Positions 21,001 to 27,000 of a DNA stretch of 64,000 bases are shown here, one piece after another; position 1 is the stretch's first letter, and every line of letters starts with the position of its first letter. The position numbers were made by a program. The DNA comes from Rhabdothermincola salaria (lineage in GTDB: Bacteria; Actinomycetota; Acidimicrobiia; Acidimicrobiales; Acidimicrobilacustridaceae), in assembly GCF_021246445.1 (NCBI RefSeq), contig NZ_JAJQXW010000001.1, forward strand, positions 310,001-374,000. Reading direction: 5' to 3'.

Positions 21001-24000
21001 CCCCGGATGGACGCCGACGCCTGGAACGCCCGCTACGACACCGCCGAACTGGTGTGGTCGGGTGAGCCGAACCAGTTCCTGCCCCCGGAGATCGCCGACC
21101 TCGAACCCGGCACCGCACTCGACCTGGCCTGCGGCGAGGGGCGCAACGCCATCTGGCTGGCCACCCAGGGCTGGACCGTCACCGGCGTCGACTTCTCCTC
21201 GGTCGGTGTGGCCAAGGCTCGACGCCTGGCCGGCGAGCGGGGGGTGGAGGTCGACTTCCAGATCGGCGATGCCACCGAGTTCGAGCCGCCCGAACAGGGC
21301 TACGACCTGGTCATCGTGTTCTACCTGCAGCTCCCCGCCGACGAGCGCCGGGCGGCGGTGGCCAACGCTGTGCGCTCCCTCGCCCCGGGGGGCCACTTCG
21401 TGTACGTCGCCCACGACCTGTTGAACCTCTCCGAGGGCTACGGAGGCCCCGACGACGCCGTCGTGTTGGCCACCGCCGAGGGCATCGTCGACGACATGGC
21501 CTCCGCCAGCCTCGAGTACGGCCTCGAGCTCGACGTCGAGCGCGCCGAACGGGTCGACCGGCCGGTGCCCACCCCCGACGGCGAGCGCATCGCCATCGAC
21601 ACCCTCGTGCGGGCCCGGCGGCTGGACACCATCAGCGTCGCCGACCTCGGTCCGATCGGCGAGGACGTGGGGTGAGGACCGCCCGCGTCATCCCCTGCCT
21701 CGACGTCGACGCCGGGCGGGTCGTGAAGGGCGTGAACTTCGTCGGCCTGCGCGACGCCGGCGACCCGGTCGAGCTGGCCGCCCGCTACGACGCCGAAGGC
21801 GCCGACGAGCTGGTCTTCCTCGACATCACGGCGTCATCGGACCAGCGAGAGACCATCGTCGACGTGGTGCGCCGCACCGCCGAAGAGGTGTTCATCCCCT
21901 TCACCATCGGTGGTGGCATCCGCAGCGTGGACGACGCCCGACGCCTCCTGCGCGCCGGCGCCGACAAGGTCTCGGTCAACACCGCGGCCGTCGACCGCCC
22001 CGAGCTGGTCTCGGAGATCGCGGCCGAGTTCGGCAACCAGTGCGTGGTCGTCGCCATCGACGCCCGTCGTCGCCGCACCGACGACGGCCAGCCCGCCGAG
22101 AGCTGGGAGGTCTTCACCCACGGCGGGCGCACCCCCACCGGTATCGACGCCGTCGAGTGGGCCCGCCGGGCCGCCACGCTCGGCGCCGGCGAGATCCTGC
22201 TCACCTCCATGGACCGCGACGGCACCCGTGACGGCTTCGACACCGCGCTCACCAGCGCGGTGGCCGACGCCGTCGACGTGCCCGTCATCGCCTCCGGCGG
22301 TGTCGGTCGCCTCGACCACCTCGTCGAGGGCGTCACCGCCGGCCATGCCGACGCCGTGCTGGCGGCATCGATCTTCCACTTCGGCGAGCACACCGTCCAC
22401 GAGGCCAAGGCCCACATGCTCGCCGCCGGCGTCACCGTCCGGCCGTGATGCTTTGCTCAGCTCGGCAAGCCTCGCCGAGCCGGCTTCGCCGAAGCGCGTG
22501 GGCTGTCTGAGCCTCCTTGCTGCGCGGCGTCGGCTGTTGCAGGTCGTGACATCTTGCTCCGGTCGGCAAGCCTCCCTTCGCCGGCTTCGCCGAAACGCGA
22601 GAGCTTTCTGAGCCTTCGTCGCTGGCGCTCCTTCGGCTCTTGCGAGTCGGCTGAGAAGCTCAGTCCGGTGGGCGATGGGAGCGCCAGCGACCCGCCCACA
22701 CCGCGTCCCGACGAGCTTGCGAGGAGGGCGCCATGGACACGGTTCTGGTGCGGGACAGGACCCGCCGGGACCCCGAGGACCCGACAGGTGGGCGATGGGA
22801 GCGCCAGCGACCCGCCCACACCGCGTCCCGACGAGCTCGCGAGGAGGGCGCCATGACACTCAGCTCCGGTCGGGAAGCCTCCCTTCGCCGAAGCGCGTGG
22901 GCGTGTTGAGGCTCCTCCCTGCGGTCGTCGCCTGGCCCTCCCGGTGACAAGGGGTTCCGGTGGGTGGCCCGGACCACGGTTCTGACGCGCGCACAGGAGC
23001 GAGTGCGGCTCGGCGGCCGCGGCCTGCGACCGACGAAGGGTTCGTCAGCCGCCGCCCGAGCTCGACGAAGCCGCCGCTCTGAGCGACTGAGCACGTCAGG
23101 TTCTGGTCCGGGACAGGACCCGCCGGGACGCCGAGGAGGCGGGAACTCGCGATCAGAGAGAAGCGATGAAGTCGATGACGAGGCGGGCGGCCTTGTCGGT
23201 GCGGCCGACGAGGAAGTGGTCGGCGCCGGGCACGACCTCGAGGGTGGTGTTCACCCAGTCGGCCGTGGCCTCGGCGGCCGAGGCGGGGGAGCGGAACTCG
23301 TCGTGCTCGGGGACGATGATCAGCTTGGGGCGCGGGTCGTGGCCCACCACGTCGTAGTCGGCTGCGGGTCGGAACCGCAGCGGCGGGGCGATCACCACCC
23401 ATCCGGCGAGGCGCTCGTCGGTGACCCCGAGTGACACATCGGCCCCGAACGACCAGCCGCACACCACCAACGGTCGCAGGGGGGTGGCCGCGGCGAGGGC
23501 GTCGATGGCGGCGACCACGTCGAGGGCCTCGGCCTCACCGTGGCCGTGCTCGCCTTCGCTGGCGCCCACGCCCCGGAAGTTGAAGCGCAACGCGGCCAGC
23601 CCGCTCCGGGGGAGGGCACGGAAGAGCTCGCCGGTGACCAGCGAAGTCATGGAACCGCCGTGGAGGGGGTGGGGGTGGGCCAGCACCACCGAGCCCGTCA
23701 CGGGCGGGTGGCCCTCGGCCGGTTCGCCAGGGAGGGCGAGCTCGGCTTCGAGGGACAGACCGTCGCTGGTCGTGCAGGTGAGGGAGCGGATCTCGGTGTC
23801 GTCGGCCACGGCTGCAGACGGTACCGTCGACGAGGTGACCCCTCCGAGCCACGACCTGGCCCCCGACGACGCACCGGTGCGGGCCGTCGACAAGTTGCCC
23901 ATCCAGATGATGAACGACCGGATCCTGGTCAAGATGGGCGGCAACGAGGGCGAGCGCCGTTCCACCGGCGGCATCCTCATCCCGGCCACCGCCCAGATGG

Positions 24001-27000
24001 GCAAGCGCCTGGTGTGGGCCGAGTGCGTGGCCGCCGGTCCCAACGTCCGGTCCATGCAACCGGGCGACCAGGTCCTGTTCAACCCCGAGGACCGCTACGA
24101 GGTCGAGGTCCGCGGCGACGACTACATCATCCTGCGGGAGCGGGACGTGCACGCGGTGGCGGCCAAGCGCCTCGAGGAGGGCAGCACCGGTCTCTACCTG
24201 TGAGCGCAATGCGTTCGTGGGGGCTCCGGTGGCCCCGGTAGCGTGGCGGGCATGCCCGCCTCCATCCCCATCGACGCCACCGAGGACCAGCTCGCGGCGG
24301 TGACGTACAACAGCGATGGGCTCGTGCCGGCCATCGTCCAGGAAGAGGGCACCGGGCAGGTGTTGATGATGGCCTGGATGAACGAGGAGTCGTTGCGCAA
24401 GACCCTCGAGACCGGCCGCACCTGGTTCTGGAGCCGGTCGCGCCAGGAGTACTGGTGCAAGGGCGAGACCTCCGGCGACCGCCAGTACGTGCGCTCGGCG
24501 GCCTACGACTGCGACGGCGACACGTTGCTGTTCGTGGTCGAGCAGGAGGGCAAGGGCGCCTGCCACACCGGCAACTACTCCTGCTTCTACCGGCCCTTCG
24601 GTCCCGAGGGCGACACCGGCCACGCCGGGCGCTGAGCGCGTGATCCGGCCCTCGCGGGAGGACTTCCACGCCCTCGCGGCCGAGCACACGGTGGTGCCGG
24701 TGTGGCGCGAGCTGTTGGCCGACCTCATCACCCCGGTCGCCGCGTTCGCCCGCCTCTGCGGCGACGACGAACCAGGCTTCCTGCTCGAATCGGTCGAGGG
24801 TGGCGACCGGTGGGGACGCTGGTCGTTCGTGGGGCGCAATCCGCTGGCCACCATCGTCTCGGCCGGTGGCGAGCTGCGCGTCGAGGGCGACCTGCCCGCC
24901 GACCTGCCCACCACGGACGGCGTGCTGGCCGCGGTCGAGTGGCTCCTCGAGCGCTACCGCTCGCCCACCCTCGACGAGCTCCCGCCCCTGCACGGGGGCC
25001 TCATGGGATACCTCGGCTACGACGTGGTGCGCGAGGTCGAGCGGCTGCCCGACGTGCCCGAGGACGTCACCGGGTACCCCGACGCGGTGCTGTCGGTCAT
25101 CGGCCAGCTCGCCGCGTTCGATCACTTCCGCCAGCGGGTCACCCTCATCGAGAACGTCCTGGTGGCTCCGGGCACCTCTCCCGACGAGCTCGATCGCCTC
25201 TACGACGCCGCCCTGGGTCGGCTCGACCAGCTGGCTGCCGACGGCGCCCGCCCGCTCGACGAGCCCCTCCTCGAGCCCCCTCCGCTCGACGAGCCCCTCC
25301 CCGAGGTCGAGTCGTCGGTCTCGCCGGATATCTACGCCGGCGCGGTCGAGGCGGCCAAGGAGCACATCCTCGCCGGCGACATCTTCCAGGTGGTGCTGTC
25401 GCAGCGCTTCTCGTTCGACCTCGAGGCCGACCCGTTCGACTTCTACCGGGTGCTCCGCCAGGTGAACCCCAGCCCCTACATGTACTTCGTGCGCACGGCC
25501 GAGGTGTCCCTGGCCGGGTCGTCCCCGGAGCCCATGGTGAAGCTGGTCGACGGTCGGGTGATCTCGCGGCCCATCGCCGGCACCCGCCGTCGGGGCCGCA
25601 CCGAGGAGGAGGACCGGCGCCTCGGGGCCGAGCTGCGCGAGCACCCCAAGGAGGTCGCCGAGCACGTCATGCTCGTCGACCTGGCCCGCAACGACGTGGG
25701 TCGCGTGGTGCGCTTCGGTAGCGAGCAGGTCGACGAGATGATGGTGCTCGAGCGCTACAGCCACGTGATGCACCTCACCTCGCAGGTGTCGGGTGAGCTC
25801 GCCGACGGTCGCACCCCGATCGACGTGCTGCGGGCCACGCTTCCCGCCGGCACCGTGTCGGGTGCCCCCAAGGTGCGGGCCATGGAGATCATCGACGCCC
25901 TCGAGCCGATCAAGCGGGGTCCCTATGCGGGGGTGGTGGGCTACATCGACTTCTCCGGCACCATCGACACGGCTCTGGCCATCCGGACGCTGATGGTCGG
26001 CCCGGACGGTCGGGCCCACGTCCAGTCCGGGGCCGGCATCGTGGCCGACAGCGTGCCCGCCCACGAGGACCTCGAGTGCCACAACAAGGCCGGCGGCCTG
26101 CTGGCCGCCGTCCCCGGCGCCCGTCGTCTCACGGCCACCCGCCGAGCCGCCCGCCGCTGAGCGACACCGATCCGGTGCCGCACCCGTCGGGATCGGCGGC
26201 GGCGCTGGCACACTTCGACCATGGACTCCGCCACCCTGACCGATGTGATCGACGGGTTCGAGGCGCTCTGCGGGACGGGAGGATCGGCTCCCGACACCCG
26301 GGAGCTGGTCACGATGACCGGCCCCGAGGCGGGGCGCTACCTCCAGGGCCAGCTCAGCCAGGACGTCGTCGTGCTGGCGGTGGGCGCCTCCGCCTGGTCG
26401 TTGCTGTTGCAGCCCACGGGCAAGGTCGACGCCTGGCTGCGGGTGCACCGCACCGGCGACGAGGAGTACGCCCTCGACGTGGACCTTGGTTGGGGCGAGG
26501 CGGTGATCGCACGTCTGCGCCGGTTCCTGTTGCGCACCAAGGCCGAGATCGGCGAGGTCGAGGTCCGAGAGGTGCTGTCGGTGCGCCACGAGGCCACGCT
26601 GGTGCAGATCGGGGCGGAGCCTCCCGGCGGGGCCGAGGGACGCCTGGCCGGTGTCGTCGCCGGCCCGTCGGTGGCCGGGGTCGACTGGATCCTCCCCGCC
26701 GGGGACGCAGCCGCGGAGGAGGCCACGGTGCCGGCCGCCGCGCTCGAGCGCTACCGCGTGGCCCACGCCGTGCCCCGCATGGGCGCCGAGCTCACGGACG
26801 CCACCATCCCCGGCGAGGCCGGGCAGTGGTTGGTGCAGGCCTCGGTCGACTTCGCCAAGGGCTGCTACACCGGACAGGAGCTGGTGGCCCGCATCGACAG
26901 CCGGGGCAACACGGTGCCGCGGCCGGTGCGCCTGCTGCGCATCGACCAGCCCGAGGCCATGCCCGTGCCCGGAGCGGCCATCCTCCACGACGGCGCCGAG

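Follow-up and report, generated by a model that had tools for sequence, protein, structure and literature searches.

The occurrence of a second GroES-like gene among histidine and tryptophan biosynthesis genes of Rhabdothermincola salaria, unlinked to any groEL of the genome, raises the question of which partner its product serves. The window analysed is the whole stretch of 64,000 nucleotides of the genome that contains the gene. An earlier note had described it as an order-specific GroES, wedged between hisF and hisI, that serves the orphan GroEL or clients tied to His/Trp synthesis. The locus comprises the following genes (positions within the window):

21672..22448, plus strand: hisF, upstream member of the his cluster (Pfam His_biosynth, 292.2 bits)
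23153..23830, minus strand: alpha/beta hydrolase (Hydrolase_4 / S33-like; Pfam Hydrolase_4, 41.4 bits, and Abhydrolase_1), start approximate
23835..24203, plus strand: Cpn10/GroES paralog, 122 amino acids plus stop (open frame and translation)
24243..24635, plus strand: hisI (Pfam PRA-CH, 118.1 bits), directly 3' of the paralog
24640..26160, plus strand: trpE, anthranilate synthase component I (Pfam Chorismate_bind and Anth_synt_I_N)

Frame, translation and Pfam (Cpn10, 59.4 bits versus a cut-off of 21.1, residues 23-108; the sole family matched) agree with the 122-residue protein reported previously. Either of two GTG codons, at 23835 and 23877, may be its start; the first ~18 residues vary, and conservation among homologs sets in near residue 17-20. 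The predicted structure is a GroES fold (core pLDDT about 89-94), for which Cpn10/GroES chains were the best Foldseek matches. As noted before, identity to the canonical GroES of the genome amounts to 33 % (32 of 98 positions, BLASTP), and the strong constraint then proposed is borne out by 7354 homologous proteins, the best 120 of which are 73-94 % identical. The canonical GroES clears its NCBIfam cut-off (144.7 versus 136 bits), whereas the paralog stays below every cut-off of the NCBIfam GroES models (best 41.3 bits versus 96). A distinct Cpn10 paralog under strong constraint is supported.

The placement between hisF and hisI holds only loosely. hisI adjoins the paralog at a distance of 39 nt to its first GTG, or the 48 nt given earlier if the ATG at 24252 is used, and the two genes are probably co-transcribed; hisF is separated by ~700 nt of repeats at its 3' side and by the hydrolase gene, which is divergent from the paralog and lies beside it in the same orientation in 47 of 80 related loci. 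The his/trp linkage claimed for relatives was recovered in the 80 Acidimicrobiia loci, with hisF upstream in 59 (in some just 25-150 nt off), hisI at most 600 nt downstream in 48 and trpE at most 2.5 kb downstream in 69. This retained order, hisF-(hydrolase)-paralog-hisI-trpE, spaced in some loci tightly enough to hisF and hisI for one operon, would suit a co-chaperonin for His/Trp-synthesis clients or for the orphan GroEL in Acidimicrobiales. Such a role is very improbable. The same loop and tail occur in many families, and his/trp genes lie within 8 kb of the paralog in 0 of 20 loci outside Acidimicrobiales, so the function must predate this linkage and does not depend on it. Nor is the gene confined to the order: it was detected in 125 of 401 sampled Actinomycetota genomes (one copy each), in many families outside Acidimicrobiales, and named Streptomyces and Micromonospora orthologs exist in the sources. 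Only the place beside hisI/trpE is peculiar to Acidimicrobiales. Other neighbours included HtrA-like proteases (L138, L142), an S9 peptidase (L137), PrsW (L131) and the peroxiredoxin Bcp (L126, L130). Proteasome genes were never among the neighbours in the loci examined, among them the 80 Acidimicrobiia and the 20 distant ones.

Exactly two Cpn10 matches were found genome-wide, the paralog and the canonical copy on contig C5, immediately 5' of a Cpn60 gene; the second of two Cpn60 genes is the orphan on contig C2, which confirms the inventory given earlier. No CIRCE or HAIR element was detected in the window. Elsewhere in the genome, CIRCE accompanies the canonical groES (two copies) and the orphan groEL (one), both groEL genes carrying it, so the paralog has, as the earlier note suggested, a genomic and regulatory context of its own. 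CIRCE groups the orphan groEL with the canonical groES rather than with the paralog, and nothing ties the paralog to this GroEL or to His/Trp clients.

A further possibility is that the paralog serves GroEL (either copy) alone, as a second and specialised co-chaperonin, its tail being chaperonin-related or otherwise and any likeness to GQYL coincidental. The Pfam match, the fold, the two GroELs of the genome and the name GroES used by the sources all accord with it, as do a Cpn60 gene ~1.5 kb from the paralog in one distant lineage and the position of the paralog after dnaK-grpE-dnaJ-hspR in three genera of family f143. It sits poorly with the failure of every curated NCBIfam GroES cut-off and with the lack of both groEL linkage and CIRCE in R. 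salaria, unlike groES and both groELs. The loop through which GroES contacts GroEL bears directly on this reading:

23937..24005, plus strand: mobile-loop region, residues 35-57 (GGNEGERRSTGGILIPATAQMGK), containing ILI, a hydrophobic tripeptide of GroEL type, and directly after it the invariant P50

No stretch of the paralog is more conserved than this loop. In an alignment of 34 sequences (A1), P50 is invariant and R41, G46, I49, A51, T52 and A53 are conserved at 90 % or more; G-I-[LV]-I-P-A-T-A is present in 113 of 115 Acidimicrobiia loci. BLASTP aligns GGILIPATA of the paralog with SGLVIPDTA of the canonical GroES, in keeping with the earlier statement that the tripeptide is retained. Judged from its sequence, the loop may bind GroEL, and its near-invariance suits a genuine co-chaperonin at least as well as a proteasome cap. 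A second site differs from canonical GroES:

24036..24050, plus strand: roof-hairpin site (G68-P69-N70-V71-R72), where the paralog is ~10 residues shorter than canonical GroES

A 10-residue gap marks this site in the BLASTP alignment with the canonical GroES. The A1 profile requires insertions of 9-10 residues here when compared with solved bacterial GroES chains and none with the Cpn20 N-domain, and none of the 34 A1 sequences carries an insertion. By these alignments the paralog lacks the GroES roof beta-hairpin, which counts against a partnership with GroEL alone.

The C-terminus harbours two further features, and its invariant end, like the proteasome, was not considered in the earlier note:

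24162..24200, plus strand: flexible C-terminal extension, residues 110-122 (AKRLEEGSTGLYL), 13 residues
24189-24200, plus strand: terminal GLYL, a GQYL/HbYX-type candidate proteasome-docking motif

Model confidence falls to a pLDDT of 54 in the tail and then 42 for the final residues (117-122 all below 50), and a low-confidence, sequence-variable linker precedes the invariant end. All 121 close homologs end in GLYL, as do 114 of 115 Acidimicrobiia loci (GLYM in the remaining one), while 20 distant loci from other families end in GLYL (16) or GQYL (4). Among 150 representatives at 50 % identity, the ends were GLYL (81), GMYL (2), CLYL, GQYL and GLYV (1 each), most others appearing truncated or frameshifted. 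According to PMC8223512 and PMC12288473, Mpa and Bpa interact with the proteasome through the motif GQYL, which inserts between alpha subunits and whose Gln is dispensable; PMC4254994 describes for Bpa a variable linker ahead of an invariant end, and its discovery by the same type of C-terminal motif search. A six-frame scan of R. salaria (31,936 ORFs of at least 60 residues) identified three G-x-Y-L ends against 0.33 expected, namely the paralog, the Mpa/ARC homolog beside dop (GQYL) and the Bpa homolog (GTYL). An exclusive GroEL partnership does not account for an invariant four-residue end that alternates just between GLYL and GQYL.

Some partner distinct from the 20S alpha-ring might instead recognise the tail, or the tail might act as a degradation or autoinhibition signal, the paralog then being a substrate or client adaptor rather than a cap. 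Several protease and adaptor systems make use of hydrophobic C-terminal ends, and the neighbours of the paralog are varied and often related to proteolysis or stress (HtrA-like, S9 peptidase, PrsW, Bcp). We nevertheless regard this as quite unlikely, since Mpa and Bpa have the only other G-x-Y-L ends in the genome and, to our knowledge, the only proteins with a conserved terminal GQYL are these two proteasome activators; the strict nesting with 20S described below also argues against it.

With a PF00227 match as mark for 20S genes, the 401 Actinomycetota genomes divide into 125 with paralog and 20S, 0 with the paralog only, 74 with 20S only and 202 with neither, a table that overstates the signal because the genomes are related and not independent. 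The paralog was found in 0 of the 202 genomes lacking 20S, although all of these need GroEL/GroES, and this too is left unexplained if GroEL is the sole partner, which on balance we consider unlikely. Within paralog-bearing families, three 20S-less lineages were identified, each missing the paralog: G006 (100 % complete; same-genus G663 has both), genus g217 of family f96 (5 of 5 genomes) and G336 (G507 of the same family has both). A single Cpn10 was present in each of G006, G322 (genus g217) and G336. Only about three separate co-losses can be named, two of them in small genomes with many genes lost. The nesting is with 20S and not with pupylation, because G322 retains two Pup-ligase-family (Dop/PafA-type) genes yet lost 20S and paralog. 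Among the 263 genomes of the order sample with the paralog, 6 were without a PF00227 match (completeness: G054 91 %, G077 75 %, G118 91 %, G142 74 %, G221 78 %, G267 82 %); in G054 a Pup-ligase gene is cut off at a contig end, and in G118 neither Pup-ligase nor 20S was found. A PF00227 match was likewise missing from 9 of 68 paralog-bearing genomes of family f96, all 57-88 % complete. Conversely, the proteasome can do without the paralog: among genomes with a proteasome, 74 of 199 lack it in the phylum sample and 35 of 292 in the order sample. The invariant GLYL/GQYL end, together with the restriction to 20S-bearing genomes, is the strongest signal in the paralog, and both point to the proteasome.

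Co-folding of two PrcA copies with paralog residues 17-122 yielded an ipSAE of 0.48 (runs 0.48, 0.50 and 0.29) versus 0.02 for the best control, with a partner pLDDT of at least 62 and at least 17 % of contacts agreeing between runs, a result rated as weak support. Of 157 solved complexes used for calibration, 116 reached the mark, as did 2 of 215 mismatches, and scores no higher than 0.60 were obtained by just 18 of the 157 and by both passing mismatches; by the tool's own caveat, such a pass is oftener wrong than right unless the guess is already likely. It may also echo memory of solved GQYL-20S complexes, and its score leaves room for another reader of the tail. The co-fold returned scores and no interface, from which the tail position in the pocket is not readable. 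PrcA Lys52, which we take to be the pocket lysine, is shared by all 26 alpha subunits aligned.

With somewhat better than even chances, the best explanation is docking of a GroES-fold ring on the 20S proteasome, and the second GroES-shaped protein is probably an undescribed proteasome partner rather than a mere spare co-chaperonin. Judging by its family, the paralog most likely forms a ring of the GroES type, whose flexible GLYL tails would insert into the inter-alpha pockets of the 20S alpha-ring, where Mpa/ARC and Bpa/PafE place their GQYL tails. A heptamer would fit the seven-fold alpha-ring one to one, as against hexameric Mpa and dodecameric Bpa. With the roof hairpin lost, the ring should have an open axis, for which reason it is read as a putative ATP-independent cap. 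Such a cap might open or regulate the 20S gate or compete with other caps, and the conserved mobile loop could provide a second contact, to 20S, substrates or GroEL. More speculatively, the hisF-hisI-trpE placement in Acidimicrobiales may couple expression to amino-acid supply; a role in amino-acid recycling has been proposed for the bacterial proteasome.

Among known systems, canonical GroES/Cpn10 (PF00166; M. tuberculosis Cpn10, 1p3h; E. coli GroES, 1aon) has the same fold and family, with the N-terminal DRVLV strand and the loop core G-[IL]-[LV]-I-P-x-T-A common to both; the paralog departs from it by its 33 % identity, the missing roof hairpin, the added 13-residue GLYL/GQYL extension, scores under all NCBIfam GroES cut-offs, a location away from groEL and the lack of CIRCE. 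Phage T4 gp31 (1g31), a Foldseek match to the paralog, is a divergent GroES-fold co-chaperonin that also lacks the roof hairpin; it differs as a phage protein that partners host GroEL and has no C-terminal docking tail. The 11S activators PA26/PA28 are ATP-independent heptameric rings that match the seven-fold alpha-ring and dock by C-terminal tails, but they are eukaryotic, all-helical and unrelated in fold to GroES, with an activation loop and tails without the penultimate-Tyr gate-opening motif. Mpa/ARC, encoded beside dop here, docks on 20S by its terminal GQYL (PMC8223512), but is an ATP-driven unfoldase, hexameric and about 590 residues long, whereas the paralog has no ATPase domain. Bpa/PafE (PF10759) resembles the paralog as a small, ATP-independent protein with a variable flexible linker ahead of an invariant G-x-Y-L, and in occurring only alongside prcAB (PMC4254994); it has no homology to the paralog and forms a helical dodecamer (PMC8223512, PMC12288473). 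Since R. salaria also encodes a Bpa, which ends GTYL, the paralog supplements Bpa and does not take its place. A precedent for a GroES-type ring on a protease is the chloroplast Cpn11/20/23 ring, which, according to bioRxiv 10.1101/2021.07.26.453741, caps seven-fold ClpP and represses it in vitro. Chains 7ekq_R and 7ekq_P (chloroplast Cpn-ClpP) were among the fold and profile matches of the paralog, and the Cpn20 N-domain, likewise without roof insertion, was the best solved match to its profile (E 2.9e-22). That system differs in its protease, in docking mobile loops in ClpP clefts and in being an ordinary Cpn60 partner, whereas the paralog is a dedicated copy with an added proteasome-type tail.

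The open frame at 23835-24203 on the plus strand encodes a protein of 122 residues in which Cpn10 is the single Pfam domain (residues 23-108; 59.4 bits against a cut-off of 21.1, and 59.6 bits in the search of the whole genome). This paralog of GroES is located among his and trp genes.

Genes and features around the paralog (window positions)
20237-20947, hisA
21672-22448, hisF
22410-23137, repeat-rich gap
23153-23830, minus strand, alpha/beta hydrolase
23835-24203, plus strand, GroES paralog
24243-24635, hisI
24640-26160, trpE
beyond trpE: GCV_T-like gene, DnaJ-domain/DUF3040 membrane protein, ABM protein, trpC, trpB-like gene

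The gap between hisF and the hydrolase is packed with direct repeats, namely two tandem units of 101 nt (70%), a 69-nt unit recurring at 99% identity 120 nt apart, and units of 37-41 nt present three times; inverted repeats, Rfam matches and long coding-like ORFs are all absent from it. Rfam returned zero matches over 18000-31000 at E values up to 0.1, and neither sigma-70 promoters nor intrinsic terminators were found by scans of 22400-24700. The gene at 27182-27730, placed within the trp cluster between the GCV_T-like gene and the ABM monooxygenase, codes for 182 aa, with a DnaJ (J) domain at the N-terminus and a DUF3040 membrane segment at the C-terminus.

The genome comprises 3.9 Mb in 7 contigs at 97.8% completeness; Cpn10 was matched in it exactly twice, and two genes for Cpn60 are present. 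The canonical groES is located directly 5' of groEL on contig C5, while the second groEL stands alone on C2. The earlier note had recorded this inventory, together with the 33% identity (32/98) between paralog and canonical GroES in an alignment running through the mobile loop, and is correct as far as it goes. The paralog is predicted to adopt the GroES beta-barrel, its top Foldseek matches being Cpn10/GroES chains at a probability of 1.00. The roof beta-hairpin is missing: a gap of about 10 residues is present relative to the genome's own GroES, and the profile of the 34-sequence alignment of the paralog (A1) needs insertions of 9-10 residues at the roof site to align solved bacterial GroES chains. 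This hairpin is not universal, since the Cpn20 N-domain likewise lacks it, and the best solved match to the A1 profile is the roofless Cpn20 N-domain of 7ekq (E 2.9e-22). All NCBIfam GroES models (NF001526-NF001539, NF011106) failed on the paralog, the best score being 41.3 bits against a cut-off of 96; two of its orthologs from other lineages also remain below the GroES cut-offs, and the canonical GroES passes with 144.7 bits against 136.

In scans with the CIRCE consensus, the canonical groES was found to be preceded by two copies (0 and 3 mismatches) and the orphan groEL by one (1 mismatch), the two genes serving as positive controls. Neither CIRCE, at up to 3 mismatches, nor HAIR elements (a consensus also given in PMC9775585) were detected in the window. 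As the paralog also adjoins neither of the two Cpn60 genes, no genetic or regulatory coupling to groEL was found. The reading as a second co-chaperonin for GroEL draws on the mobile loop, whose hydrophobic tripeptide is kept at the level of sequence, GGILIPATA aligning to SGLVIPDTA of the canonical GroES. No other stretch of the protein is as conserved as the loop G-G-I-L-I-P-A-T-A, in which P50 is invariant; the motif occurs in 113 of 115 loci. Something specific presumably binds this loop, with GroEL as the obvious candidate.

The second conserved element, overlooked in the earlier note, is the terminal motif. Each of the 121 proteins from the initial homolog search terminates in GLYL, as do 114 of the 115 Acidimicrobiia loci, the remaining one ending in GLYM. 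Among 150 representatives at 50% identity, the endings are GLYL (81), GMYL (2), CLYL (1), GQYL (1) and GLYV (1), and the rest are mostly visibly truncated or frameshifted metagenome products; 20 distant loci comprise 16 with GLYL and 4 with GQYL. A1 shows no variation at Y121 and L122 and hardly any at G119 and L120, while the 8-10 residues ahead of the terminal motif vary in sequence and length. The AlphaFold2 monomer (mean pLDDT 76.4) has barrel blocks at 89-94 and a tail at 54 and then 42, residues 117-122 lying below 50. Judged by sequence, this conserved terminal G-x-Y-L with its penultimate tyrosine would place the paralog in the GQYL/HbYX class of proteasome interactors. According to sections of PMC8223512 and PMC12288473, the GQYL end of Mpa and Bpa inserts between alpha subunits of the actinobacterial 20S proteasome, its tyrosine being the counterpart of the HbYX tyrosine and its glutamine being reported as non-essential.

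Bpa itself was discovered, as described in part of PMC4254994, by screening a genome for endings of this kind, whereupon co-occurrence with prcAB was noted. When this search was repeated here on six-frame ORFs of at least 60 aa (n = 31,936), with the expectation derived from positional frequencies, 3 G-x-Y-L ends were observed against 0.33 expected; the same 3 compare with 0.21 expected among the 3,953 coding-like ORFs. They belong to the paralog and to two separate genes elsewhere on contig C1.

Homologs of known proteasome activators in the genome
C1:287828-288646 (about 21 kb upstream of the window), Bpa homolog, PF10759 at 217.5 bits, ending in GTYL, not GQYL
C1:927490-929265, Mpa/ARC homolog, a 591-aa ATPase beside dop, ending in GQYL

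Since the genome has its own Bpa, the idea that the paralog replaces a missing one was dismissed. Homology of the paralog to Bpa (PF10759) or Mpa/ARC was not found, Pfam giving Cpn10 only; it may work like Bpa and Mpa, yet outside their families.

The genome harbours prcB-prcA flanked by two Pup-ligase-family genes. As 20S is nearly universal in the order (292 of 301 sampled genomes), the order sample is uninformative for co-occurrence, and the comparison was therefore made across the phylum and within one family instead. In the phylum sample (401 genomes), with matches to the 20S marker PF00227 counted at E <= 1e-8, no genome carries the paralog without such a match.

Co-occurrence of paralog and PF00227 in the phylum sample
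Paralog present: PF00227 match 125, no match 0
Paralog absent: PF00227 match 74, no match 202

Five of the 125 carriers are flagged as unpublished, without which the count is 120 of 120. A single weak PF00227 match is the only one in 3 of the 199 positives (G476, G502, G542), and the paralog occurs in none of these three. Proteasome-bearing genomes without the paralog number 74 here and 35 in the order sample.

Because relatives are not independent, contrasts were sought inside paralog-bearing families. Genome G006 (100% complete, 2 contigs) is devoid of 20S, Pup-ligase genes and paralog, while G663 of the same genus possesses 20S and paralog. Both are missing in 5 of 5 genomes of genus g217 in family f96, one of which (G322) retains two adjacent Pup-ligase-family genes, and likewise in G336, while G507 of the same family as G336 has both. 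G006, G322 and G336 have one Cpn10 copy each, and G663 has two. From these co-absences it follows that the paralog tracks 20S rather than pupylation. Exceptions in the order sample are 6 of 263 carriers without PF00227 match (G054, G077, G118, G142, G221, G267), which are 74-91% complete; the contig end truncates a Pup-ligase gene in G054, and in G118 neither 20S nor Pup-ligase genes were found at 91% completeness. In family f96, 9 of 68 carriers (57-88% complete) are without a match, and none of these is among the 31 high-quality f96 genomes. G118 also contains a third Cpn10 match (locus L185, G118:C21:72934-73188) scoring 87.8 bits, compared to 110.9 for the canonical GroES and 58.9 for the paralog.

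The description of the protein as order-specific was not borne out. One copy is present in 263 of 301 genomes of the order sample (E <= 1e-18; 197 of 222 high-quality genomes) and in 125 of 401 of the phylum sample (E <= 1e-12), the latter carriers including many families outside the order and among them one genus with 7-10 Mb genomes. An exact-sequence look-up yielded orthologs in Streptomyces (a cluster of 1836 members) and Micromonospora, labelled "co-chaperone GroES" or "GroES family chaperonin". That genomes across the phylum keep one intact copy, with loop and tail almost unchanged, points to selection and speaks against a frozen accident or a duplicate in decay.

Acidimicrobiia stand out by where the gene is located. 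Among 80 loci of this class, hisI follows the paralog within 600 nt in 48 (47 of 78 when counting loci with enough sequence), trpE is no more than 2.5 kb away in 69, hisF is located upstream in 59 and the divergent hydrolase is kept in 47. Four public MAG records (L048, L051, L097, L121) carry this type of locus, with a paralog of 69-84% identity and hisI/trpE synteny, under the titles Acidobacteria bacterium, Bifidobacterium breve (two) and Bifidobacterium sp.; the labels look wrong, or the bins mixed. Within 8 kb of the paralog, his or trp genes occur in 0 of 20 loci from families outside the order, and this linkage can therefore not explain the function of the family. The neighbours of these outside loci vary (Bcp, DUF3618, P450, HtrA-like, S9 peptidase, PrsW, transporters), none being common to them, and no proteasome genes were found among them. 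In three genera of family f143 (L141 7998-12250, L188 1989-6312, L189 6001-12306), the paralog is located on the same strand just after dnaK-grpE-dnaJ-hspR, at distances of 15 nt, about 97 nt and about 2.8 kb. In mycobacteria, HspR is the best-known Bpa-dependent proteasome substrate, according to a section of PMC8223512. A Bcp-type peroxiredoxin (AhpC-TSA) adjoins or is near the paralog in three unrelated lineages (L126 7028-7492, L130 7221-7844, L143 9579-10151), one of which is the large-genome genus. In two lineages a small DUF3618 gene is located directly 5' of the paralog on the same strand (L128 8348-8683, L129 8320-8586), possibly in one operon with it.

Co-folding of two PrcA chains (26-row alignment A2, residues 1-232) with paralog residues 17-122 (A1) resulted in an ipSAE of 0.48 (runs 0.48, 0.50 and 0.29) against 0.02 for the best control, with partner pLDDT of 62 or more and 17% or more of the contacts shared between runs; no interface was reported, and the tool rated the result as weak support. 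The calibration counts of the tool, which hold only roughly for a multi-copy co-fold with custom alignments, are 116 of 157 solved complexes and 2 of 215 mismatches reaching the mark, with scores of 0.60 or less held by only 18 of the 157 and by both passing mismatches. As GQYL-20S complexes are already solved, the score may reflect memory, and the model adds a small increment to the docking reading.

For a ring-forming fold that has gained a flexible, invariant GLYL/GQYL end and occurs only in 20S-bearing lineages, docking on the 20S alpha-ring is the simplest account, and we consider it slightly more likely than not. That the protein forms a ring-shaped oligomer is suggested by its GroES family membership and by the conserved first and last beta-strands; by symmetry, a GroES-type heptamer would match the seven alpha-ring pockets, and without a roof its dome would be axially open. 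The effect on the proteasome could be activating, gating or blocking, and the loop could contact 20S, substrates or GroEL. In a further reading, which we regard as improbable, the ring would bind both machines: mobile loops would seat the lid on GroEL, seven GLYL tails would hold 20S, and the lid, turned into an open collar by the missing roof hairpin, would join the GroEL cavity to the proteasome gate, such that proteins failing to fold could pass directly from chaperonin to protease. If true, substrates would enter the bacterial proteasome by an ATP-driven route that does not depend on Pup, GroEL serving as the unfolding or holding module. The hisF-hisI-trpE position in Acidimicrobiales may, speculatively, couple expression of the paralog to amino-acid supply; for mycobacteria starved of nitrogen, a section of the review PMC8223512 presents amino-acid recycling by the Pup-proteasome system as a hypothesis. 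This gene order may also be the frozen accident of one insertion.

Literature searches outside subscription journals (GroES with HbYX, GQYL with proteasome, Cpn10 with activator, Streptomyces groES2) retrieved, in the text portions covered, no GroES-family protein with a proteasome motif, and GroES and HbYX were co-mentioned only incidentally, with no link drawn. The words GroES, chaperonin and Cpn10 are absent from the ProEnd paper's main text, to which the search was confined, as distinct from its supplements and the ProEnd database. In the passages retrieved by term from reviews of 2025 and 2026, ring partners of the bacterial proteasome are Mpa/ARC, Bpa/PafE and Cpa only, and those of the 2025 review state that nothing is known on the regulation of activator-20S association. 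The class of C-terminal-motif interactors is already known; new here would be such an interactor on an unexpected fold. If true, the GroES-fold ring would be a fourth bacterial proteasome partner using the same docking motif, the first expected to match the seven-fold symmetry of the alpha-ring, and would tie the chaperonin fold directly to the proteasome. The function in thousands of "co-chaperone GroES" database entries is probably named wrongly or incompletely, and the presence of the family in Streptomyces and Micromonospora renders the idea testable in organisms that are harmless and easily handled in the laboratory. The capping of a seven-fold protease by a ring of co-chaperonins has a precedent in chloroplast Cpn11/20/23, which, according to part of a preprint (bioRxiv 10.1101/2021.07.26.453741), is seated on ClpP by its mobile loops and represses ClpP in vitro, and the chains of which are among the fold and profile matches of the paralog.
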